Origin: an uncultured Planctomycetota bacterium
GTDB lineage: Bacteria; Planctomycetota; Phycisphaerae; SM23-33
DNA length: 64,000 nucleotides
Direction: 5' to 3'
Assembly: GCA_903892515.1 (NCBI GenBank)
Contig: CAITIS010000067.1
Coordinates: 1,347 to 65,346 of the forward strand
In this document: positions 7,490-56,048 of the stretch, in pieces
Layout: each line of letters opens with the position of its first letter
Numbering within the stretch: position 1 is the first letter of the stretch
Program-made: the position numbers and the translations under genes
Notes under the pieces: model-generated
The model's database searches: none
What the model was told of the DNA's origin: nothing
The model's input: only the letters and a program-made list of their open reading frames with translations

Positions 7490-8548
7490 ATGGATTCGGG
7501 AGCTCATAGAATGGCCTTTAGGGTTGCTCAGACAACATTGTCCGCTCTTATGGTGCTGGCTTGGGTGGCAGGATGCCAGAAGCCCGAGGCCAGCCCTCTC
7601 GTCCCTGCGCATCAGGCCAGCAGTTATTACGTCGAAGGCCAGTTGGCCATGGATCGTCAGGACTATGACGCCGCCCTGGCGGAACTGCGAAAGGCCATCG
7701 CGGCCGATCCTTCGCTGTCGGTGGCCCACGCCGCCATCGGCGATATCTACCGCAAGCAAGGCAAGTTAGAAGAAGCCGCCAGCGCCTACGAGCAGGCCGT
7801 CACCACCGACCCGTCCTCCTTCCGGCCACAGTACAACCTTGGCGTCGTCTACCAGGCGCTGGCCGATGCCGCCAAAGACGCCCAGGCCGGGGCCGAGTAC
7901 ATCCAGAAGGCCATCGATACCTACGTCAAGGCCCTGGAGATTCAGCCGGGCGATTTTGACGCCAATTTGAACCTCTGCTCCTGCTACTTCCAGGAAGGCA
8001 AGTACGACCTGGCCGAGAAGTACTGCAAGGGCGCCATCCAGGCCGACCCGAAAAACCCAGGCGGACCGTTCAATCTGGGCGTGATCTACAAGCAGATGGA
8101 CCGCCCCTACGATGCCATCCGTGCCTTCAAAGACTCGCTCGAACTGGACATCAACCAGCCACGGCTGCTCGTAGAACTGGGCAACGTGTACATGAAGCTT
8201 GACCGTCTCAAGGACGCCCAGAAGGCGTTTGAACTGGCCACGCAGCAAGACGCTGAGAACGCCGATGCCTGGGAGCAGATGGGCCAGGTCTACTACCATC
8301 AGCAGCGCTATGATGAGGCGGTCAAGGCCTATGAGAAGGCCATCACGCTGAATCCCAAAAGTTCCTCGGCCTATCGCGGGCTGGGTGTGGTCTATATGAC
8401 GCAGTTCATCAATCAGCCGGGCGAGCCGGGGCTGCGTGAAAAAGGTCTGGAGGCCTGGAATCTGTCGTTGGAGTACAACTCTAACCAGGAGGACCTTGTG
8501 AAGTTGGTTCGGAAGTACACGCCGACGTTGTCGAAGCCGTCGTTGTAA
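7490..8548 (+). CDS. Tetratricopeptide-repeat lipoprotein
   Basis: Signal peptide plus lipobox (LAWVAGC). Multiple TPR-like A-x-x-Y/A repeats (AYEQAVTTDP, YVKALEIQP, KAYEKAITLNP). Likely start at the MAFRV ATG at 7511. Confidence 0.7.
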   Translation: MDSGAHRMAFRVAQTTLSALMVLAWVAGCQKPEASPLVPAHQASSYYVEGQLAMDRQDYDAALAELRKAIAADPSLSVAHAAIGDIYRKQGKLEEAASAYEQAVTTDPSSFRPQYNLGVVYQALADAAKDAQAGAEYIQKAIDTYVKALEIQPGDFDANLNLCSCYFQEGKYDLAEKYCKGAIQADPKNPGGPFNLGVIYKQMDRPYDAIRAFKDSLELDINQPRLLVELGNVYMKLDRLKDAQKAFELATQQDAENADAWEQMGQVYYHQQRYDEAVKAYEKAITLNPKSSSAYRGLGVVYMTQFINQPGEPGLREKGLEAWNLSLEYNSNQEDLVKLVRKYTPTLSKPSL

Positions 8549-8603: not shown

Positions 8604-9398
8604 ATGCCTCGAATTGCACGAATAGTGCTGCCAAACGTCCCTCACCTCGTCGGGCAGCGCGGCAACCGTGGCGAGAAGCTTTTCCCCGCCCCGGGCGACC
8701 GCGAGCTCTACCTTGAAATCCTCAACGAGAACCTCAAGGGCTGCGCGGTCAAGCTTTGGGCTTACCGGCTGGAGAATACCGAGGTCTTGCTGTTGCTGCA
8801 GCCGGCGGACCTGCACGGCATGGCCAAATGCCTGCGGAACGCCCACGGCCTGTATAGCCAGACCATCAACCGGCGAGTTACCGCCACAGGCCACCTCTTC
8901 CAGGGCCGGTTCTACAGTTGCCCCCTCGACGCCGAGTATGCGATGGAGGCGCTAAAGCACCTGGACCGCGCGACCGGCACCGCCCAGGCCTCGCGCCAGT
9001 GCCGCTTGCATCGTCTCGGCCAGCCGTCGGAAGGCCACGACGGAGTCTGCGCCTTCTGCGGCATGCTGGACGAGAGCATCCCCTACCCCAAGATGGCATC
9101 AGAACTGCCCCAGTGGCTCGCACGCCCGGCAGATCCGGCCATCGTGCGGGCTGTGCTGGGTCGGTTGCGCGTCGGCAAGCCTGCGGGCTCCCCCAGCTTC
9201 ATCAGGGAGGTCGAGGTGCTGACGGGGCTGAACCTGTCTCGCCGCCGCGGCCGGCCGAGAAAGCTGCTTGTGCAGGCGAGCGTGCCCGAAGTCATGCCGG
9301 CCAAGTCGCAGCCAGTCGTCGAAGTGCCGGAAACGCTGCCGACGGCGCCGCCTGTGGGCGTCTACATCGCACAGAATCCAAACGTGCCCATTTCGTGA
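8604..9398 (+). CDS. RAYT-like / IS200 (Y1 HUH-family) transposase homologue with degenerate HUH motif
   Basis: MPRIARIVLPNVPHLVGQRGNRGEKLF...YLEIL...AYRLENTEVLLLL...GHLFQGRFYS aligns to the RAYT/TnpA(IS200) N-terminus and Q-G-R-F block. The expected HvH is replaced by TEV. A REP hairpin lies 42 bp downstream. Confidence 0.65.
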   Translation: MPRIARIVLPNVPHLVGQRGNRGEKLFPAPGDRELYLEILNENLKGCAVKLWAYRLENTEVLLLLQPADLHGMAKCLRNAHGLYSQTINRRVTATGHLFQGRFYSCPLDAEYAMEALKHLDRATGTAQASRQCRLHRLGQPSEGHDGVCAFCGMLDESIPYPKMASELPQWLARPADPAIVRAVLGRLRVGKPAGSPSFIREVEVLTGLNLSRRRGRPRKLLVQASVPEVMPAKSQPVVEVPETLPTAPPVGVYIAQNPNVPIS

Positions 9399-11610: not shown

Positions 11611-14130
11611 TCAGTCGTCTCTACTGCCCGATGATCGGCCGCTTCCCGTGCCCGTCCCGCCGCCTGCTGCGGATGACCCCAGTGCCGTTGCGATGGCCTG
11701 GGCCTGGGTCGAAGTCAGCGAGATGCCCCTCATGGCCGATACGCTGCTGATGGCCGAAGTGATCTGCGACGCGCTGCTTCCGCGCACGCTCGATGACGCC
11801 AGAGCACGGTGACAGGAGGCACAGGTGCTCGCATACAGGCTGGCACCGTCAGTGGTTGTTGTTCCGCCGCCAGTGGTGCCGCCGCCAGTCGTTCCGCCAC
11901 CCGTGCTGGACGTTCCCAGTGCGGTTGCGATGGCCTGGACTTGCGCCGCGGTCAGCGAGGAAAGGCTCCTCATGCCCGAGACGCTGCTGATGGCCGAAGT
12001 GATCTGCGACGCTGTGCGCCCACGCTTGGCGGAGGAAGCCAGCGCCCCGTGACAAGAGGCACAATCACTGGCATACAGCGTGGCCCCGTCGGTGGTTGTC
12101 GTCCCGCCACCAGTGGTCCCGCCGCCCGTGCCGGACGTTCCCAGCGCCGTGGCGATGGCTTGGATTTGCGTCGCGGTCAGCGTCGAAAGGCTCCTCATGC
12201 CCGAGACGCTGCTGATGGCCGAAGTGATCTGCGACGCCGTGCGCCCACGCTTGGCGGAGGAAGCCAGCGCCCCGTGACAAGAGGCACAATCACTGGCATA
12301 CAGCGTGGCCCCGTCGGTGGTTGTCGTTCCGCCACCAGTGGTGCCGCCGCCGGTCGTCCCACTGACGCCAGTGTGGGGTGGCATCTGGCCTACACGTCCG
12401 TCGGTGTGACACACCTGGCAGTGGTTCTGCCCCAGTGGCCGATTCGTGCCCTGTAGCGCCATGACCTGCTGATTGTCAACGGCCTGCATCGAAGGATACC
12501 ACGAGTGCGGGCTGTTGTGGCAGGCCGCACAGTGCAGACCGCCGTGCCCGGTGGCCTGGCGGAAGAGTTGCGTGCCCGTGTCGAACTGGCTGCCGTGGCA
12601 CTGAGAGCACTTGGGCTCTTGCAGCCACGCTTGCCGGCCATTCTTCAGGCCCGTGGCCATAGCCGTCAGATCGCCGTGACAGGTATCGCACTTGGGATCG
12701 GTGCCCACCGGCCCCATGCCCGGCAGAGTGCTGCGGTTGCACTGGGTCTTGGCGCCGGGATGACAATCGTAGCAGGCCGGCTGGACCGCGATGGTGCTGT
12801 GCTTGTCGTGCATCGACTGCGATAGCGACGGCACGCCGGTCATGCCAGCCATCTTCAGGGCGTTGTCCTGGTGGCACTTGGAGCACAGCACAGGCCGGCT
12901 GGCCATGAGCGTGGTGCCGTGGGTACGGTCGTGCAGGGTCAGGATGTTCGACTCCACCGTCCCGTTGAGCCCCACTGCTGCCACCGCGCCGGGGGCGTGG
13001 CACTTCTGGCAGTTCATCTCATCGGAGGTGGGAATAACAACCTTGGCCGTGTTGCCGGCGCTGAGTTTGACCGTGGCCACCTGCAATGGATTCCACACCT
13101 TCTGATCGTTGTACGGTGTAATGGGAATTCCGCTGGCCTCGAAGATGCCGCCGGCGATCGGCACGGCCGAGCCGCTGAGCTTGTTGCCCGTCAGGCCCGT
13201 GTCCGGCGCCAGGGCCACGCCAAAGAGCTGCTGGGCGTAAGTCCAGAAGTCAATCTTGTTCGAGGACGTGGTGTTGCCGTCGATGGAATAGGTAACCGTT
13301 ACTCCGCTGGTGATCACCTGCGGCTCGGCCGCCCGCCCGATGACCTGCACATGGAGGTCATTGTACGGCGGCAGAACGCATAGTTCGGCCGAGCGAGAGC
13401 TGAAGCAGTGCATGCCCAGGTCATTCCAGCCGATCATCATGTACGTGCCTGCGGCACCGGTGCTGCCAGTGCCACCTTCGCCGTCATCACTCCCGCTCGT
13501 CGTCCCGCCCGTGCCTGTGCCGCCAGTACCTGTGCTGGCCGTGCCCAAGGCCGTGGCAATAGCTTGGATTTGCGTGGAAGTCAGCGAAAGGTTCCTCATG
13601 GCCGAGATGCTGCTGATGGCCGAAGTGATCTGCGAGGCGGTGCGCCCGCGTTTGGAAGAGGAGGCAATCGCGCCGTGACACGAGGCGCAATCGCTGGCAT
13701 AGAGCGTGGCCCCGTCCGTGGCGGTGGTTCCGCCGCCGGTAGTGCCGCCACCAGTGGTCGTTCCGCCCCCCGTGGTTCCGCCGCCGGTCGTCGTGCCGGA
13801 CGTGCCCAAGGCCGTGGCAATGGCCTGGACTTGCGTGGAGGTCAGCGATGAAAGCCCGCGCATGCCCGAGACGCTGCTGATGGCCGAAGTGATCTGGGAG
13901 GCGCTGCGCCCGCGCTTCGAGGAGGACGCCAGGGCCCCGTGACAAGAGGCACAATCGCTGGCGTACAATGTCGCCCCGTCCGTGGCCGTGGCTCCACCCC
14001 CAGTCGTCCCCCCGCTCTGCTGGGCCGATGCCGTACACGGCCAGCCGATCACCGACCATCCCGCCAGCGCCATCAGCGCCAGCAACATCATCGTTGTCCT
14101 TCTGTTCATGACAATTGCCTTTCCATGCAT
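11611..14130 (-). CDS. Modular multiheme cytochrome c: 12 CxxCH motifs arranged as 2 mono-haem class-I cyt c modules, a 7-haem core, then 3 mono-haem modules, joined by Gly/Thr linkers
   Basis: Signal peptide MNRRTTMMLLALMALAGWSVIGWP (probable true start at 14109). Repeated module DGATLYASDCASCHGALASSSKRGRSASQITSAISSVSGMRGLS.LTSTQ.QAIATALG x5. Core contains CQKCH, CSKCH, CYDCH, CDTCH, CSQCH, CAACH, CQVCH. Confidence 0.8.
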   Translation of the reverse strand: MHGKAIVMNRRTTMMLLALMALAGWSVIGWPCTASAQQSGGTTGGGATATDGATLYASDCASCHGALASSSKRGRSASQITSAISSVSGMRGLSSLTSTQVQAIATALGTSGTTTGGGTTGGGTTTGGGTTGGGTTATDGATLYASDCASCHGAIASSSKRGRTASQITSAISSISAMRNLSLTSTQIQAIATALGTASTGTGGTGTGGTTSGSDDGEGGTGSTGAAGTYMMIGWNDLGMHCFSSRSAELCVLPPYNDLHVQVIGRAAEPQVITSGVTVTYSIDGNTTSSNKIDFWTYAQQLFGVALAPDTGLTGNKLSGSAVPIAGGIFEASGIPITPYNDQKVWNPLQVATVKLSAGNTAKVVIPTSDEMNCQKCHAPGAVAAVGLNGTVESNILTLHDRTHGTTLMASRPVLCSKCHQDNALKMAGMTGVPSLSQSMHDKHSTIAVQPACYDCHPGAKTQCNRSTLPGMGPVGTDPKCDTCHGDLTAMATGLKNGRQAWLQEPKCSQCHGSQFDTGTQLFRQATGHGGLHCAACHNSPHSWYPSMQAVDNQQVMALQGTNRPLGQNHCQVCHTDGRVGQMPPHTGVSGTTGGGTTGGGTTTTDGATLYASDCASCHGALASSAKRGRTASQITSAISSVSGMRSLSTLTATQIQAIATALGTSGTGGGTTGGGTTTTDGATLYASDCASCHGALASSAKRGRTASQITSAISSVSGMRSLSSLTAAQVQAIATALGTSSTGGGTTGGGTTGGGTTTTDGASLYASTCASCHRALASSSVRGSSASQITSAISSVSAMRGISLTSTQAQAIATALGSSAAGGGTGTGSGRSSGSRDD

Positions 14131-14456
14131 ACGTCAATGTTCTGATACACCCCCCTGAAAGGAGGGAAACAATGTCGGGAGACACCTCGTGCGTTCGCGG
14201 CCTGGTGGTCGTCAGATGCATCGCCCTGCGCAGGGATACACATGGCAAGAGCGAAGCGGCCAGCATGAGACAGAGGCACTATCACAGTGTGATATGATAC
14301 GAAACTCCCCGGGGGTCGGATCAAGAAATCCTTCAGGCCCGAGTAGTGCTCGGCCCCGAGGCTTCGGGGACAGAACGCCAGTGGTTGTCCGTCAGAAGAG
14401 CAACGCCGAGACGCTACGTCTATAAGCAGCGCCCCAGAATGCGGTTAGGCCGGAGG

Positions 14457-42961: not shown

Positions 42962-43045
42962 CGCCCCGTCGGGGCTCTGTGCCACTGGGGCGGTCTCCGT
43001 GGGCTCGCGCCCACGGCTACAATCGTTCCGGCCCTCCGGGCCTCC
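42962..43045. repeat. Family-4 hairpin element (intergenic copy; paralogue of the copy inside GT4 at 2869-2957)
   Basis: Shared 3' block ggctacaatcgttccggccctYcgggcctc. ccgtgggc-tcgc-gcccacgg. Confidence 0.6.
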
Positions 43046-45618: not shown

Positions 45619-47580
45619 CTACCCCAGATGCCCCGGCCGGTAGTGGACGCGCAGCCGCGACTGGCCATCGGCGGCGCCGAAGATGGGCACGCGCAGGCGG
45701 GATCGTTTGAAATAGCTCAGGCGCTGCTTGTCCAGGCGGTAATAGTACAAGGGCAGGTCGATCAGAAGTTCCGACGGCCCCGCCGGCACGTCGACGACCA
45801 CCAATAGCGGAAAGGTCGGTCGGCTGATGGTTCGGTCCGTCAAACCGGCCGACAGGATCGCGCCGTTGGGAGAGAACACCCGCACGGTGTTGGCCGCCGT
45901 CGGGTTTATCGCCAGCCCGGCCGGCAAGTCCAGGGCGATAGACAGCGTCACGGGCCCCGGCAGCACGGTCTGGAGCGGCATGTCCTTGATGAGGTCGCCG
46001 GTCGCTTCTGTTTCGCCCGTCTCGGCCGATTCCTCCAAGCCCTGCACGTGCAGCGTGGCGACCTCGCCCGTGATCAGGTCCAACGTGCGAACGGCGCTGG
46101 TGTTCGTGTCGGCCACATACAGCTTCTCGCCGGAGAGCCCCAGCCCGGCCGGTTCGTGAAAGCCGCCCGGAATGCCGTCTTCCAAACCGCTCTGTCCTGA
46201 GCCCGCCAGTGTGCGGCACGTCTGCGAGGCTAGGTCGATGAGCTTGATCTTGTTGTTGTAGGTGTCGGCCACGTACAGCCTGTTGTCGTGATAGGCCAGG
46301 CCCATGGGGTGCTGCAGTCGGGTGGTCGCGGCCGAGCCGTCCACGTCGCCGAAGTCAAACAGATCCCCTCCGACAATCGTTCGCACTTGCCTGCTCTGCA
46401 AGTCTATTTCGCGGATGCTGCTGGTTTCGCTGTCAGCCACGTACAGTCGCCGGCCATCCGTCGCCAGGCCGGAGGGCTCGGCAAAGGCCGCCTGTTCAAC
46501 CGGGCCGTCCACGCGGGCCTCTTCGCCGGTGCCGGCAAACGCCTCGATGCGGCCAGTGTCCAGGGCAAGCCGCCAGATTTGATGGCTGCCCGCGTTGGCG
46601 ATGTACAGCCAGTGCCCCGCGGCCGCCAAGTCCCACGGCACGTTCAGCGATGTCAGCTTTCCCGCCCCGGCATGGGCAGGCTTCTTCGCCTGCCGACCAG
46701 TGCCGGCCACCGTGACGACGGTGTTCATTTCGATATTGACGGCGCGAATCGCGTGGTTGCCGGCATCGGCCACATACAACAGCCCATCGACCAGCGCCAA
46801 GCCTTGCGGATTGCAGAACTCGCAGCAGCTAGAGTCGCCGTCGGAGAAGCCTTCCATGCCGCTGCCGATGGTCATCTGCAACCGCTGGTCCTCCAGGCCG
46901 ATGACGAGGATGCGATGATGATTGGAGTCCGACACGAACAGCCGATTGAGAATCGGATCGACCAGCAGCTTGCCAGGAAACGCCAGCGCCGTCGCGGGTG
47001 ACGACACGGCGTCGGGCCCGACGCTCAGCGGCGTGCGGTCGAGCCGGCGCTTCTTCTCGAAGGTCTGCACGACCATCGAGATCAATTCGTCGAAGGGTTC
47101 ATAGATGTCCTGGCCCGCCATCGACCAGACGACCTTGCCCAGCGGATCCAGCAGCACGGCGGTCGGCCAGACCTTCACGCCATAGCGGCTCCACAGGACC
47201 ATGTCGGCGTCATTGATCACCGGGTGCTCAATCTCGAATCGCAGGATGGCCTTGCGGATGTTCTCGCCCTGGGTTTCCTGCGAAAACTTCCCGGAATGCA
47301 CGCCGACCACGACCAGTTCGGAGGGGTACTTCCTTTCGAGACGCTTGAGTTCCGGCAGGATGCTTAGGCAACTGACGCGGCAGTACGCCCAGAACCCCAG
47401 CAGCACCACCTTGCCCCGCAGTTCGCGCAGATGCAGAGGCCGATCCACGTTCAGCCACTCCAGATCCTCTGGGAAATCCGGGGCCGATAACTTCCCTTCG
47501 TAGCTCTGCATACTCACGGTTTGGTCTCCTATCGATTGTACATCGACAATCGACAGGTCGTTTGCCGGGTATTCCCCCAA
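45619..47580 (-). CDS. Thioredoxin-like (redoxin) domain plus NHL-repeat beta-propeller protein (NHLRC2-like)
   Basis: VLLGFWAYCRVSC redoxin motif. Repeated NHL units (LYVADAGNHAIR, LYIANAGSHQIWR, LYVADSETSSIREI, LYVADTYNNKIKLI, LYVADTNTSAVRTL). Confidence 0.7.
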   Translation of the reverse strand: MGEYPANDLSIVDVQSIGDQTVSMQSYEGKLSAPDFPEDLEWLNVDRPLHLRELRGKVVLLGFWAYCRVSCLSILPELKRLERKYPSELVVVGVHSGKFSQETQGENIRKAILRFEIEHPVINDADMVLWSRYGVKVWPTAVLLDPLGKVVWSMAGQDIYEPFDELISMVVQTFEKKRRLDRTPLSVGPDAVSSPATALAFPGKLLVDPILNRLFVSDSNHHRILVIGLEDQRLQMTIGSGMEGFSDGDSSCCEFCNPQGLALVDGLLYVADAGNHAIRAVNIEMNTVVTVAGTGRQAKKPAHAGAGKLTSLNVPWDLAAAGHWLYIANAGSHQIWRLALDTGRIEAFAGTGEEARVDGPVEQAAFAEPSGLATDGRRLYVADSETSSIREIDLQSRQVRTIVGGDLFDFGDVDGSAATTRLQHPMGLAYHDNRLYVADTYNNKIKLIDLASQTCRTLAGSGQSGLEDGIPGGFHEPAGLGLSGEKLYVADTNTSAVRTLDLITGEVATLHVQGLEESAETGETEATGDLIKDMPLQTVLPGPVTLSIALDLPAGLAINPTAANTVRVFSPNGAILSAGLTDRTISRPTFPLLVVVDVPAGPSELLIDLPLYYYRLDKQRLSYFKRSRLRVPIFGAADGQSRLRVHYRPGHLG

Positions 47581-51302: not shown

Positions 51303-54300
51303 ATGAAGGTGGACTCAAGATTCCTCACCAGCCAGGGGCCGGAGATCTTTACCGGCAACGAACTGTTGGTCAAAGGCGCCCTGGAGGCCCAGGGCGGCAT
51401 GCATCTGCTGGGCGGCTACCCGGGCTCGCCCGTGGCGGGCTTCTTTGATGCGCTCTCCCAGATCAAAGACCTGCTTACCGAAAAGGGCATCCGCGCCGTC
51501 ATAAACAATAACGAGGCACTCTCCGGGGCCATGCTCAATGGCAGCCAGCTTCTGGGCTGCCGGGCAATGATCGTCATGAAGTCCGTGGGCGTGCACGTGG
51601 CCGCCGATGCGCTGGCGTTGGGCAACCTGGCCGGGGCGCATCCCGACGGCGGGGCCATCCTCGTCTGCGGCGACGATCCCTGGAGCGACTCCACCCAGGT
51701 GCCCGCCGACAGCCGGTACATCTGCAAGCACCTGCACATGCCCGTCATCGAGCCGGCCACGGCGCAGGACGTAAAGGACTACGTCGATCTGTCGCTGCGG
51801 GTTTCGCGAGAGGCCGAGTTGTACGCGGGCTATCTCATCACCACCAACCTCGCCGATGGCGGCGGCACCGTGCAATGCCGGCCTAACCAGTTTCCAACTT
51901 TCAGCACCCGCCAGCAGTTGGCGATGAAGACCGACGAGATCAACCTGAACAAATACGTCCTGCTGCCGCCGCGAACATGGTGGCAGGAGGCATCGCTGCC
52001 GGCGCGGTTTGCTCGCGCCATGGCCACCGCCCGGCGCACCGGCATGAACCAGCTGCTCTTTGGCGGCGGCGGGAAGAAGAAGCCGCTGGGCTTTGTCGCC
52101 AGCGGGCTGGCTTTTAGCTATCTTCAGCAAGCACTGGGCGAGATGGACCTGCTGGGCGAATTCCCCATCGTCAAGTTCGGCCTGAGCTATCCCATCGACC
52201 CGCAGATGGTGCGCGAGTTGGCGCAGCAGTGCGACCGCATCATCGTCGTGGAAGAGCGCCGCGGCTTCATGGAAGAGCAGATCGGCCAGGTCATTCTGCG
52301 CGACCGCCAGGAAGGCGCCGACACGGGCAATGTCGAGCTTTGGGGCAAGAAGTTTCCGGGCAACCTGCCGGGCTTCCCGGAACGGCTGGGCCTGCATCCC
52401 TCGCTCGTCATCGAGACGCTGGGCAGGTTGATGGATCATCTGGCCAAGCGCGGCCAGTTAGGCAGCTCCGGCGAAGCCTCCTCCAAGCGCGAGGTCGAGA
52501 GCATCCAGGCCACCGGTCGCGCCGAGTTCGGCGCCACCCCGCCACGGCTGCCCAGTTTCTGCCCCGGCTGCCCGCACCGCGACAGCGCCAGCCTGTGCCT
52601 GGAAATCAAGAAATCCTTCGCCGACGAACTCTACATGCGGCGGATGCACAAGCGTGGGGCCGTGGACCTGGTCTTCCACGGCGACACCGGCTGCTACACG
52701 ATGCTGATGTTCCCGCCCAACACGCCGCTGATGCACAATTATTCCGGCATGGGGCTGGGCGCCGGCACCGGCTCGGGCATCGACCCGTTCGTCACCAACA
52801 AGCAAGTCGTCTTCATGGGCGACTCGACCTTCTTCCACTCCGGCCAGATCGGGATTTCGCAGGCCATCAAGCTGGGCCAGGACATCACCTTCATCATCCT
52901 GGACAACCGCACCACGGCCATGACGGGCCACCAGCCCACCCCGGGCGTCGACTACGACATTCTGGGCAACTCCACGGCCGCTCAGAGCATCGACGACATC
53001 GTCCGCGGCATGAGCATCGATGGCACCTTGCCAGTGGTGCGCGTCTCGCCGGAACGACGAACCGAGTACCGCCGGCTGCTGGAGCAGACGTTTCTCTCCG
53101 ACGGCGTGAAGATCATCATCGCCGACAAGGAGTGCGGCATCACGCGCACACGGCGGCGGCGCAGGGCCGAGCGGCAGGTCATCCGCAACACGGGATTCCT
53201 TCCCGCCTGGGAGCACATGAATGTCAACCAGGACATCTGTAACTTCTGCCTGGACTGTTCGCGGCTGACCGGCTGCCCTGGCCTTAAGCACGTCCAGACC
53301 GACTACGGCCTGAAGACCGACACCGACCTGACCTGGTGCGTCAACGACGGCGCGTGCGAACGCATCGGCAGTTGCTCGGCCTTCGAGCACGTGACGATCA
53401 AGCGCAAGGCCGCCCCGCGATCCAGGGTTCCCGAACTGAACCTCGACGCGATTCCCGAACCGGCCCTGCCGCCCATGCCCGAAAGCGGGCTGTGGCGCTG
53501 CTGCCTGGTGGGCGTGGGCGGCATGGGCATCGGCCTGGCCACACAGGTGCTGGTCCGCGCCGGCCACAAGCAAGGCCTGGAGGTCACCTTCTACGACAAG
53601 AAGGGCCTGGCCATTCGCAACGGCGGCACTATCAGCCACGTGACTTACGCCTCTGGCTCGACCAAGCCCGTGACAGCGGTGATTCCCTTCGGCAAGGCTG
53701 ACCTGCTGCTGGGCATGGACGTGCTGGAGGCCGCCAGGGCTGTCGATCCCGAATCGCGCAGCCGGATCGCTTCGCCCGAGCGAACCGCCGCGGTCATCAA
53801 CACCGATAAAATTTCGACCATCAGCGGGCTCATCAATGGCCGGGACTTTGACGTCGAAGGGCTCGACCAGGTTATTCGGCGGCACACCCGGCCCAACGAG
53901 ACGTTCACGCGCAACATTGGCCGGCTGTGCGAAAAGTATCTCGGCAACAAGCTGTACACGAACATCATGCTGCTGGGGCTGGCCTTCCAGAAAGGCCTGA
54001 TCCCCGTTTCGCTGCACTCGATGGCCTGGGCCATCAAGGACACCATCAAGGCCGACTTCCGCAAGAACATGTATGCGTTCAACATTGGGCGCAAGCTCAT
54101 GGTCGAGCCGGCGCTCTTCCAAGGCCCGCCCAAGCGCACCGGCTGGCGCGAGACCCTGGAAGACAAGTGCCGCCACACGATCCGCCGCTACGGACGCGGG
54201 CAGGTCATGGCCGAGTCGCTGCGACAGATGGCGGCCGAAGTGGTCGGCAGGATGGACACGCTGGATGAGTCCGTCAAACGCGACGTGATCGTTCGCCTGT

Positions 54301-56048
54301 ACGACTGCATGCGCTGGGGCGGCCTGGAGTACGCCCGGCGCTACGCCGACGCCATCGCGTCCGTCCACGAGCAGGAAACCCGCGGCATCGTCACCTGCGG
54401 CTTAGAGCAGTACGGCGCCAAGCTGCCGGCCACGCGGGCCGTCATCGACAACTTGGCCAAAGCGATGCTCATCAAGGACATCGTTTTCATCGCCGAGCTG
54501 GCCACCAGCCCCGAAAAGTACGCCCGCGACCGCGAGAAGTACAACGTCAACCCGCCCTCGGGCGACCGCATCGTGTATCGCCACCTGCTGCACCCCGACA
54601 TTCACCTGTTCGGCAAGACCTTCCGTCCCAGCTTGATCGCCCCGCACTGGGTGATGCAACTGGCCAAGCGGATGACGTTCCTGCGCAAGGGCAGGAACTG
54701 GCGGCGGCGCGAGCGCGAGTTCCTGGCCCTGTACGAGCAGCGGATCGCCAACTTCCACTTCGGCAGCGTCGAGCAGTATCACCAGGCCGTCGCCCGCCTG
54801 TCCGAGCCGCAGTGCATGCAGTGCCTGACGCCGCACTGCCAGGACCAAGGCTGCCCACTGCACAGCGAGATCGACGGCTGGATGGAACTGGCTCGCCAGG
54901 GCAAGTGGAAAGAGGCCTCCGACCTGCTGCACAAGTACAACAACTTCCCCGAGTTCACGGCCTACATCTGCCCGGCGGCGTGCGAGTCGGCGTGCCGGCA
55001 GGCATTGAGCGGGTATCCCGTGCGCATTCAGAAGGTCGAGCGAGAGATCATCGAGCGGGCTTGGCAGGACGGCTTCGTGCAGCCTCAGCGGCCGACGGAA
55101 AAGACCGGCAAGAAGGTCGCTGTCATCGGCTCAGGCCCAGCCGGCTTGGCGGCAGCGCAACAACTGGTTCGGCGCGGACACCAGGTCGTCGTGTATGAAA
55201 AGGACTCTCAGCCTGGCGGGCTGTTGCGCTACGGCGTGCCGGAATTCCGCCTGCCCAAGAAGATGCTCGACCGCCGCTTGGAACAGATGATTTCCGAAGG
55301 CGTCAATTTCGAGGTCGGGCTGGCCATCGGCAAGGACACGCCGCTGGGCGAACTGCGGAAGCAGTACGATGCGGTGTTGCTGGCCGGCGGAGCGGCCAGG
55401 CCGAGGGATCTGCGCGTCGCGGGCCGGGAGAATAGCTCAGCCGTGCAGTACGCCATGGACTTCCTGCGGCAGGCCAACCTGGCCGTCGCGGGCAAGACCG
55501 ATGCCAAGACCACCTCGGCCGCCGGCAGGACCGTCGCGGTCATCGGCGGCGGCGAGACCGGCAACGACTGCGTGGAGATGGCCCTGTCGCAAGGGGCCAA
55601 GAAGGTCTACCAGCTCGAGATCATGCCCGCGTCCAATGGCCAGGCGGCCAGCGACCTGGAGGGCAGGATCGAGCGGCGTTGGTGCGTGGCCACCACGCAG
55701 ATCCATTCCAACGGCCAGGGCGTCCGGCTGTCGGGCGTGCAGGTTCGTTGGCTGTTCACGGCGGCTGGGCGGCAACACGTCCAAACGCCCGGCACGGAGT
55801 TTGAACTCAGCGCCGACCTGGTGCTGCTGGCCCTGGGCTTCGACGCCCCCGCCGATCCGGCCATGGTGGAACAACTGGGCCTAAAGACCGACGAGGCCGG
55901 GCGGCTCGTCGTCAACGAATTCTCGACCAGCGCTGCCGGCGTGTTCGTGGCCGGCGATCTGGCCTCAGGCGCCAGCTTAGTGGCAAAGGCCATCGACTCA
56001 GGCCGAAGAGCGGCCGAGCACGTCGATCAGTTTCTGCGGCGGGCGTAG
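51303..56048 (+). CDS. Fusion protein: indolepyruvate/2-oxoacid:ferredoxin oxidoreductase (IorA+IorB-like, TPP and 4Fe-4S) fused to a GltD-like NAD(P)H-dependent FAD/Fe-S oxidoreductase domain
   Basis: Residues 1-~1160: GYPGSPV..., TPP motif GDTGCYTM...GDSTFFHSG, ferredoxin CNFCLDC...CPG / CVNDGACERIGSC, IorB-like GVGGMGIG. Residues ~1165-1581: CMQCLTPHCQDQGCP...NNFPEFTAYICPAACESAC...KKVAVIGSGPAGLAAAQQL...LLRYGVPEFRLPK...AVIGGGETGNDCV (GltD/NfnB/SudA family). Confidence 0.85.
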   Translation: MKVDSRFLTSQGPEIFTGNELLVKGALEAQGGMHLLGGYPGSPVAGFFDALSQIKDLLTEKGIRAVINNNEALSGAMLNGSQLLGCRAMIVMKSVGVHVAADALALGNLAGAHPDGGAILVCGDDPWSDSTQVPADSRYICKHLHMPVIEPATAQDVKDYVDLSLRVSREAELYAGYLITTNLADGGGTVQCRPNQFPTFSTRQQLAMKTDEINLNKYVLLPPRTWWQEASLPARFARAMATARRTGMNQLLFGGGGKKKPLGFVASGLAFSYLQQALGEMDLLGEFPIVKFGLSYPIDPQMVRELAQQCDRIIVVEERRGFMEEQIGQVILRDRQEGADTGNVELWGKKFPGNLPGFPERLGLHPSLVIETLGRLMDHLAKRGQLGSSGEASSKREVESIQATGRAEFGATPPRLPSFCPGCPHRDSASLCLEIKKSFADELYMRRMHKRGAVDLVFHGDTGCYTMLMFPPNTPLMHNYSGMGLGAGTGSGIDPFVTNKQVVFMGDSTFFHSGQIGISQAIKLGQDITFIILDNRTTAMTGHQPTPGVDYDILGNSTAAQSIDDIVRGMSIDGTLPVVRVSPERRTEYRRLLEQTFLSDGVKIIIADKECGITRTRRRRRAERQVIRNTGFLPAWEHMNVNQDICNFCLDCSRLTGCPGLKHVQTDYGLKTDTDLTWCVNDGACERIGSCSAFEHVTIKRKAAPRSRVPELNLDAIPEPALPPMPESGLWRCCLVGVGGMGIGLATQVLVRAGHKQGLEVTFYDKKGLAIRNGGTISHVTYASGSTKPVTAVIPFGKADLLLGMDVLEAARAVDPESRSRIASPERTAAVINTDKISTISGLINGRDFDVEGLDQVIRRHTRPNETFTRNIGRLCEKYLGNKLYTNIMLLGLAFQKGLIPVSLHSMAWAIKDTIKADFRKNMYAFNIGRKLMVEPALFQGPPKRTGWRETLEDKCRHTIRRYGRGQVMAESLRQMAAEVVGRMDTLDESVKRDVIVRLYDCMRWGGLEYARRYADAIASVHEQETRGIVTCGLEQYGAKLPATRAVIDNLAKAMLIKDIVFIAELATSPEKYARDREKYNVNPPSGDRIVYRHLLHPDIHLFGKTFRPSLIAPHWVMQLAKRMTFLRKGRNWRRREREFLALYEQRIANFHFGSVEQYHQAVARLSEPQCMQCLTPHCQDQGCPLHSEIDGWMELARQGKWKEASDLLHKYNNFPEFTAYICPAACESACRQALSGYPVRIQKVEREIIERAWQDGFVQPQRPTEKTGKKVAVIGSGPAGLAAAQQLVRRGHQVVVYEKDSQPGGLLRYGVPEFRLPKKMLDRRLEQMISEGVNFEVGLAIGKDTPLGELRKQYDAVLLAGGAARPRDLRVAGRENSSAVQYAMDFLRQANLAVAGKTDAKTTSAAGRTVAVIGGGETGNDCVEMALSQGAKKVYQLEIMPASNGQAASDLEGRIERRWCVATTQIHSNGQGVRLSGVQVRWLFTAAGRQHVQTPGTEFELSADLVLLALGFDAPADPAMVEQLGLKTDEAGRLVVNEFSTSAAGVFVAGDLASGASLVAKAIDSGRRAAEHVDQFLRRA

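Follow-up and report, generated by a model that had tools for sequence, protein, structure and literature searches.

A stretch of 64,000 nucleotides (nt) from an uncultured Planctomycetota bacterium (GenBank assembly GCA_903892515.1, contig CAITIS010000067.1, positions 1347 to 65,346 of the forward strand; this whole stretch is referred to below as the window) was found to encode, on its minus strand, a modular cytochrome c of 839 amino acids (aa) with 12 CxxCH haem-binding motifs. In this protein, five one-haem cassettes are joined by linkers to a core with seven CxxCH motifs, two of them on the N-terminal side of the core and three on its C-terminal side. The cassettes are His/Met one-haem domains of the PgcA type, which is an already known and structurally solved kind of domain. 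What is new here is the combination found in this planctomycete, with such cassettes fused to both sides of a core on proline-free linkers. With slightly more confidence than doubt, the protein is interpreted as a Sec-exported cytochrome in which a rigid heptahaem core and five tethered His/Met “beads” would pass electrons by tethered diffusion.

Structure of the cytochrome and its cassettes

According to the list of open reading frames (ORFs) and the positions of the 12 motifs, the coding sequence occupies positions 11611–14130, with the stop codon at 11611–11613; all coordinates given for parts of this gene refer to the minus strand. The CxxCH motifs are located at aa 60 and 148 in the N-terminal part, at aa 374, 416, 453, 481, 508, 534, and 571 in the core, and at aa 615, 690, and 770 in the C-terminal part. 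A motif scan found no CxxxCH, CxxxxCH, or CxxCK motifs in the 839-aa protein. The original prediction, made from the DNA letters alone, had described 12 haems with two N-terminal and three C-terminal cassettes around a seven-CxxCH core, and the motif count confirmed this description. The exact 839-aa protein is not on record in public collections.

All five cassettes, each about 59 aa long, open with the sequence DGA[TS]LYAS (aa 51 and 139 in the N-terminal part; aa 606, 681, and 761 in the C-terminal part). Cassette 1, of the PgcA His/Met type (aa 51–109, positions 13804–13980), contains the haem motif C60–H64 and the predicted axial ligand Met90. It is followed by linker 1 (aa 110–138, 13717–13803), whose 29 residues are only Gly and Thr, with no proline, and by cassette 2, a PgcA-type one-haem domain (aa 139–196, 13543–13716). 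The latter is connected to the core by linker 2 (aa 197–227, 13450–13542), which is rich in Gly, Thr, and Ser and includes a short acidic patch, SDDGEG. The C-terminal part consists of the 16-aa Gly/Thr linker 3 (aa 590–605, 12316–12363), the PgcA-type one-haem cassette 3 (aa 606–664, 12139–12315), linker 4 (aa 665–680, 12091–12138), cassette 4 (aa 681–739, 11914–12090), linker 5 (aa 740–760, 11851–11913), and cassette 5 (aa 761–818, 11677–11850). The linkers, earlier described as Gly/Thr sequences, are indeed Gly/Thr-rich, proline-free, and 16–31 aa long.

Pfam analysis matched all five cassettes with Cytochrome_CBB3 (E 1.5e-30, five stretches), and NCBIfam indicated weak ccoP and cytochrome c551 matches, all with scores far under the cut-offs. 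A phmmer search of PDB sequences with the cassettes found 8qj6_A (E 5.5e-13) and 8qjg_A (E 6.5e-10), with 64 residues aligned. These structures are domains I and II of the Geobacter sulfurreducens protein PgcA (PMC11520253). The AlphaFold2 model of cassette 3, built from 49 diverse cassettes (predicted local distance difference test, pLDDT, 93), was aligned by Foldseek with 8QJ6 at a template modelling (TM) score of 0.86, a root mean square deviation of 1.1 Å, and 52% identity, and with 8QJG at a TM score of 0.84. The best cytochrome c other than PgcA reached a TM score of 0.68. Without exception, the 49 cassettes retain both Cys, the His, and the Met. The Met, which lies about 26–27 residues past the His (Met90 and His64 in cassette 1), aligns with PgcA Met301, an axial ligand (PMC11520253). 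Because of this invariance and alignment, all five cassettes are predicted to be His/Met-ligated.

The protein begins with a Sec-type signal peptide (aa 1–36, 14023–14130), recognised in the sequence by an RR n-region, the hydrophobic core MMLLALMALAGWSVIGW, and a c-region ASA followed by QQ; there is no domain between it and cassette 1. Translation more likely starts at Met8 (14109), since GGAAAGG sits 8 nt 5' of its ATG and no Shine-Dalgarno-like sequence precedes 14130. In one of the other assemblies described below (L010), the gene call starts at a Met later than Met8. A lipoprotein like PgcA or MtrC was ruled out, as there is no lipobox. The protein ends with a Gly/Ser/Thr tail (aa 819–839, 11614–11676), delimited by sequence inspection.

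Properties of the heptahaem core and its family

The core (aa 228–589) comprises an N-domain (aa 228–367, 13030–13449), predicted by AlphaFold2 to be a beta-sandwich and containing the family-invariant sequence LGMHC (aa 238–242), and a haem domain (aa 368–589, 12364–13029), delimited by the motif scan and Pfam, with the seven CxxCH motifs. In the AlphaFold2 model of the core (mean pLDDT 91, predicted TM score 0.89), all strands are in residues 1–140, after which the haem domain with short helices follows. No Pfam match was found on the beta-domain in any of 91 family members. The haem domain matched Cytochrome_C7, Cytochrom_c3_2, and Mtrc-MtrF_II-IV_dom. The score of PF22113 (MtrC/MtrF domain II/IV) was 52 bits with the full protein and 35 bits with the core alone, at a cut-off of 30, and this model is matched by 68 of the 91 members.

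A search with the core sequence yielded 4212 relatives, with the best E value of 5.9e-147. Among the 120 matches listed, most are 390–450 aa long and most contain seven CxxCH motifs, and 117 are aligned at 96–100% coverage. Those that carry a name are annotated as “cytochrome c3 family protein”. In species-representative genomes, relatives at 55–56% were found in Tepidisphaerales, Acidobacteriota, and Thermodesulfovibrionales. The alignment of 91 sequences with 47–61% identity to the window core contains 62 invariant columns, all of which are kept in the window protein; the invariant features are LGMHC, LPPxN, FW, the seven CxxCH motifs, and distal His. Seven His outside the motifs are invariant or nearly invariant (H241, H400, H441, H444, H529, H542, and H586). 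Because this number suffices for seven haems, all seven core haems are probably bis-His-ligated. Besides the Cys of LGMHC (positions 13409–13423), the core has a second invariant lone Cys, C464 (12739–12741). One of the haems may have His241 as its distal ligand, and Cys242 and Cys464 may form a disulphide or take part in His/Cys ligation.

An enzyme of the NrfA/ONR/OTR/HAO type was rejected as a candidate for the core, with no Pfam, NCBIfam, or PDB-sequence match and no CxxCK motif. The comparison with NrfA and ONR that had been proposed earlier therefore gave nothing; the family-level likeness is to generic multi-haem models and to MtrC/MtrF domain II/IV. The search of PDB sequences with the core-family profile gave weak matches with reaction-centre cytochromes only. 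Members of the core family are fused to SLH, type IX secretion system (T9SS) sorting, cohesin, dockerin, FG-GAP, Ig-like, and PASTA domains. Such fusions with surface domains argue that the family is located outside the cytoplasmic membrane, probably often at the cell surface. The core family is undescribed, with no solved structure or published function found, and literature searches on it, or on planctomycete extracellular electron transfer via such proteins, returned nothing specific. Thus, the earlier statement that the protein is not of a standard named family holds for the unnamed seven-haem core but not for the cassette, which is of the PgcA type solved as 8QJ6 and 8QJG.

Combinations of cassettes and cores in related proteins

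The 371 best hits of two large protein searches were sorted using hidden Markov models of the cassette and the core. Only the core was present in 268 of the 371 proteins, and only cassette arrays, of up to 13 copies, in 89. Cassettes followed by the core were found in seven proteins, the core followed by cassettes in four, and two cores in three, while cassettes flanking the core on both sides were found in none (0/371). Each of the 11 fusions of the core with PgcA-type cassettes among these best hits is one-sided. Since a close relative with cassettes on both sides would rank at the top of both searches, the two-sided layout is rare and so far unique.

Cassette arrays of 5–13 copies are common. 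Most of them use Pro/Thr linkers like those of PgcA, and Gly/Thr linkers are in the minority. Two proteins of about 900 aa (P0127 and P0129) contain two complete core modules in tandem with 10 CxxCH motifs in total, indicating that the core can be duplicated within one protein.

Nucleotide repeats and cassette number

Tandem Repeats Finder detected a period of 225 bp with 2.9 copies at 11678–12359, and all five cassette copies are in register. Two tandem 225-bp units (11873–12322, consisting of 11873–12097 and 12098–12322) are 93% identical, share an exact 84-nt stretch (12014–12097 = 12239–12322), and are the site of the difference in copy number between assemblies. In a codon-aware comparison, the identity of cassettes 3 and 4 was 95% across 177 nt and 93% across the 225-nt unit with its linker. 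The other nine pairs have a nucleotide identity of 74–85%, with 15–25 synonymous codon differences in 58–59 codons, and an aa identity of 78–92%; cassette 5 is the most diverged copy (74–79% nucleotide identity to the others). Because synonymous sites differ while aa identity stays high, most copies are regarded as old duplicates kept alike by selection at the protein level. Judged from this comparison, cassettes 3 and 4 are the sole pair that appears to be a product of recent duplication or conversion. The original prediction had taken the cassettes in general to be almost identical in DNA and recently duplicated or converted; both statements apply to this pair and not to the other, older copies. 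The near-duplicate out-of-frame ORFs that it cited (11849–12064 and 12065–12289) do exist and are spurious.

The window cassettes have an aa identity of 78–95% among themselves, and none of the 439 cassettes compared, from 57 other proteins, exceeds 78% identity to them. Since the window copies are closest to one another, the N- and C-terminal sets seem to have arisen from each other within the lineage or to have been homogenised. The array appears to evolve by unequal recombination. In addition, all five cassettes share, without any difference, the 24-nt sequence CAGATCACTTCGGCCATCAGCAGC, which encodes QITSAISS (11743–11766, 11983–12006, 12208–12231, 13609–13632, and 13873–13896, minus strand). 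Among the codons for invariant amino acids, 28 of 43 vary synonymously between cassettes, and a run of eight identical codons has a shuffle P of about 5e-5. This stretch could be a gene-conversion tract or reflect a constraint at the nucleotide level.

Other assemblies of the same population were reached via the on-record sequence of the neighbouring gene for GTP-dependent phosphoenolpyruvate carboxykinase (PEPCK). One of them, an independent assembly (L010, ENA ERZ27313102), matches the window base for base along 9.8 kb, apart from the precise loss of 225 bp; the deletion junction falls within the 84-nt exact repeat. The distinctive 3' half of cassette 3 and the linker after it are missing from this assembly, and its gene has a 2 + 7 + 2 organization, with 11 CxxCH motifs and two C-terminal cassettes. 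In another assembly (L009, ENA ERZ18626762), window positions 12002–12047, within cassette 4, are replaced by a 100-N scaffold gap. Between them, the flanks of the gap cover cassette 5, the two ends of cassette 4, and the half of cassette 3 that sets it apart, so that L009 needs three C-terminal cassettes. One more contig, of 4064 bp, stops approximately 350 nt beyond the PEPCK gene, within the linker that joins cassettes 5 and 4, and L011 stops at window position 11625, short of the repeats.

The form with three C-terminal cassettes is thus supported twice, by the window and by L009. The two-copy form of L010 may reflect an assembler path skipping the loop at the exact repeat, or a real deletion variant. 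The earlier warning that the locus is prone to repeat collapse or expansion was borne out by the 225-bp unit lacking in L010 and the gap within the repeat in L009. In this documented case, the copy number of a coding repeat varies between metagenome assemblies of a single population, and haem counts derived for such genes from short-read assemblies should be viewed with caution.

Genomic environment

The cytochrome gene is convergent with the PEPCK gene and is located 326 nt downstream of a DUF493 gene; ribD and a gene encoding a Gfo/Idh/MocA oxidoreductase are its other neighbours. A terminator-like hairpin (14406–14437, minus strand), found by a consensus scan only, follows the DUF493 gene and suggests that the cytochrome gene is its own transcription unit. 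Co-transcription with the DUF493 gene was considered unlikely, given this hairpin and the 326-nt gap. No oxidase, reductase, or porin gene adjoins the cytochrome gene. All-against-all comparison of the ORFs around 11 core-family genes found no conserved neighbourhood except for synteny among closely related Acidobacteria, and the core-family genes of a planctomycete-like contig, Geomesophilobacter sediminis, and two further contigs have unrelated neighbours. The co-transcribed oxidase or reductase that the original prediction had suggested looking for was thus not found: the cytochrome gene is the sole gene with at least two CxxCH motifs in the window, and no conserved neighbour occurs at the core-family genes examined.

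In the planctomycete-like contig (L001; 8696–11239 and 11326–11733), two core-family paralogues of 402 and 412 aa are arranged in tandem and are directly followed by a small Iron_permease (PF04120) gene; this neighbour, a single instance, may point to a connection with iron. A long ORF extension in L002 was rejected as spurious.

The window represents chromosomal DNA of an uncultivated planctomycete, interpreted as Phycisphaerae-like. The named relatives of its PEPCK all belong to Phycisphaerae/Planctomycetota (63–66% identity), and the best match has 71% identity. The window also holds dnaA and genes encoding a hybrid-cluster protein and a large pyruvate:ferredoxin-type oxidoreductase fusion; the latter two suggest that the host is probably an anaerobe. 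The fusion is an unusually long redox protein, encoded by a 1581-aa ORF (51303–56048, plus strand) that combines a 2-oxoacid:ferredoxin oxidoreductase-like part (TPP_enzyme_C, POR, DUF6537) with a GltD-like part (Fer4_20, Pyr_redox_2). Upstream of the PEPCK gene, a gene for a tetratricopeptide repeat (TPR) protein (7490–8548, plus strand) and a 264-aa ORF with no Pfam match (8604–9398, plus strand) were identified, and L009 and L010 have them in the same order. The TPR protein scored 62.8 bits with the CcmH/CycH TPR model (cut-off 42); many other TPR models match it too, and its relevance to cytochrome maturation is doubtful. A 653-aa protein with a thioredoxin-like domain and NHL repeats (45619–47580, minus strand), which is not adjacent to the cytochrome gene, could have an extracytoplasmic thiol-redox role. 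The Acido-Lenti-1 RNA motif (Rfam RF01687) occurs twice on the plus strand, at 2910–2956 and 42997–43043, with 44.5 and 37.6 bits (gathering score 37).

Possible mechanism and alternative explanations

In the proposed tethered-diffusion mechanism, the beads would trade electrons with each other and with the “head” by intramolecular collision, as shown experimentally for Geobacter PgcA. Each bead would extend the reach of the protein by several nm without a continuous haem wire, and a tether at full extension would add roughly 5–10 nm (estimated from 3.5 Å per residue). By analogy, the seven-haem core, in which the beta-sandwich would be joined to a closely packed chain of haems, would replace domain III of PgcA and take on the role of low-potential head towards the substrate or partner, and the beads at both ends could collect electrons from, or deliver them to, donors and acceptors lying apart. 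The likely setting would be extracytoplasmic electron transfer in which metal oxides, humic matter, or other insoluble or polymeric compounds serve as acceptors. We infer the export route past the periplasm, the direction of electron flow, and the substrate. The general reading of an exported electron-transfer protein, given already in the original prediction, is reasonable. The docking role that this prediction assigned to the cassettes is a conjecture, and the PgcA precedent would point to tethered diffusion between domains rather than to docking with an oxidase.

Several observations weigh against this mechanism. The number of C-terminal cassettes differs between public assemblies (three versus two) and is uncertain. 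PgcA is a lipoprotein with a cleaved N-terminal secretion domain, whereas the window protein has a plain signal peptide; no canonical lipobox was found at its N-terminus, where GWPC does not qualify, and no sorting signal was recognised in the C-terminal tail by eye, no sorting-signal tool having been run. No outer-membrane conduit gene or other cytochrome gene is present in the window. The bis-His ligation of the core is deduced from conservation counts, and a Foldseek comparison of the core model with PDB structures gave nothing significant (the top match was MtrC, 6qyc_C, with E 9e-3 and a TM score of 0.15), so that the “wire-like” character of the core is based on generic Pfam matches. In PgcA, Glu281/Asp372, seven residues past the His ligand, form a hydrogen bond with the proximal His, whereas the window cassettes have Ser or Ala at this acidic haem-tuning position; their potentials may therefore differ from those of PgcA. 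Finally, Gly-rich linkers are far more flexible than (PT)n, and the distribution of distances and the resistance to proteases could therefore differ as well.

The protein might instead be a periplasmic hub, in line with the docking-type cassettes of the original prediction, in which class-I docking modules would link quinol-oxidising machinery to periplasmic reductases or oxidases. The Sec signal peptide without a lipobox or recognisable secretion tag is compatible with such a role, as are the matches of the cassettes with Cytochrome_CBB3 and Cytochrom_C (and, weakly, ccoP and cytochrome c551) and the presence of a lipobox-like motif in just 13 of 182 core-family proteins. However, the cassettes are by a wide margin closest to extracellular PgcA and not to CcoP or c551, the SLH, T9SS, cohesin, and dockerin domains fused to core-family members act outside the cell, and no nearby oxidase or reductase gene was found, which makes a periplasmic hub unlikely. 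Somewhat less probable is that the count of 12 haems is an assembly artefact and the true cassette number differs. The otherwise base-identical L010 with one unit fewer, the break of L009 within the repeat, and the contig ending between cassettes 5 and 4 would fit an artefact. Nevertheless, both the window and L009 contain the half of cassette 3 that sets it apart (141 nt, with 16 differences relative to cassette 4), and this half must therefore stem from real reads; both flanks of the L009 gap demand three C-terminal cassettes, and the two-copy form matches the loop skip expected at the 84-nt exact repeat. The layout with cassettes on both sides holds at either copy number.

The remaining two explanations concern the function of the protein. 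It is improbable that the flow is reversed, i.e., that electrons are taken up from Fe(II), a cathode-like mineral, or a syntrophic partner, with the His/Met beads as entry points. The Met ligand is kept in all five cassettes, His/Met ligation generally gives haems a higher potential than bis-His ligation, and the PgcA domains swap electrons promiscuously in both directions (PMC10570954), all of which would suit uptake. Against it, there is no sign of lithotrophy in the window, and the His/Met domains of PgcA, which serve oxide reduction, have potentials still below zero, at −48 and −65 mV, compared with −106 mV for the His/His domain (PMC10570954); the sequence itself does not reveal direction. 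We give the least credence to the core being an enzyme fed by the cassettes, with the beta-sandwich and its invariant Met-His-Cys triad (aa 240–242) forming a substrate or metal site by a haem. LGMHC and other N-domain residues are invariant in 91 sequences, beyond the needs of a passive scaffold, the N-domain has no Pfam model, and the lone C464 could pair with C242 or act in catalysis. Yet the seven conserved His outside the motifs suffice for seven six-coordinate haems, the core showed no likeness to NrfA, HAO, OTR, or further families of multi-haem enzymes, and partial matches with the copper-chaperone fold were not significant (TM score 0.3–0.4 on the target, E > 0.01).

The PgcA bead is in wide use, with arrays reaching 13 copies, and can be grafted onto a rigid multi-haem head. 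Proteins of this kind offer a natural test case of how bead number, linker chemistry (Gly/Thr or Pro/Thr), and a multi-haem head bear on reach and rate. The analysis also draws attention to a thousands-strong, probably surface-associated heptahaem family. A broader and rather speculative idea, which we consider doubtful, is that the LGMHC core is the working head of a widespread, unrecognised class of proteins at the cell surface that would act as terminal reductases (or in electron uptake) and occur in Planctomycetota, Acidobacteriota, Nitrospirota, Chloroflexota, and other groups. The window version would then be a self-contained long-reach conduit, by which a bacterium with no known porin-cytochrome system would exchange electrons with solids over several tens of nm through tethered diffusion.

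Similarity to known cytochromes

PgcA is the prototype of the “haem-tethered redox strings” with tethered diffusion described in 2023–2024 (PMC10570954, PMC11520253). In this extracellular trihaem protein (GSU1761; PDB 8QJ6, 8QJG, 8QK0), domain III is the reductase, which is recharged by domains I and II (PMC11520253); the protein has a lipoprotein signal and an N-terminal secretion domain, which is cleaved off, and it is released outside the cell (PMC10570954). The window cassettes and the PgcA domains are homologous domains of about 60 aa with four short helices (48–52% identity, TM score 0.84–0.86). As in domains I and II, each cassette has CxxCH and Met; in both proteins, the domains are carried on low-complexity Thr-rich linkers and the protein is Sec-exported. 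PgcA has three beads and no multi-haem core, whereas the window protein has five beads and a heptahaem core, and the His/His domain III, which binds and reduces mineral in PgcA, has no counterpart among the window cassettes. The linkers are (PT)n in PgcA and proline-free Gly/Thr in the window protein, and the hosts are Geobacter and a planctomycete, respectively. Fernandes et al. noted that many PgcA homologues mix one-haem and multi-haem domains on unstructured linkers (PMC10570954).

Metagenomic PgcA-like arrays contain the same cassette (up to 78% identity) on short low-complexity linkers; in P0121–P0141, for example, 9–12 cassettes follow PKD domains, and P0131 belongs to Candidatus Methanoperedens. 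Near-identical neighbouring copies are frequent in these arrays (up to 93–100%). They differ from the window protein in having no heptahaem core, mostly Pro/Thr linkers, and PKD or other N-terminal domains.

The Shewanella decahaem cytochromes MtrC, OmcA, and MtrF resemble the core in the order of a beta-domain followed by a multi-haem domain and in the presumed role at the cell surface. They contain two beta-barrels and two pentahaem domains, whereas the window core contains one beta-domain and seven haems, and the window protein has neither a lipobox nor neighbouring genes for MtrAB-type partners. The closest relatives of the core are heptahaem proteins of about 400 aa (for example, P0002 and P0006 of a planctomycete-like contig, and relatives from Tepidisphaerales, Acidobacteriota, and Thermodesulfovibrionales genomes). 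They mostly stand alone or carry surface-anchoring domains, unlike the window protein, and they align end to end with its core (aa 228–589) at 47–61% identity, with all invariant residues kept.

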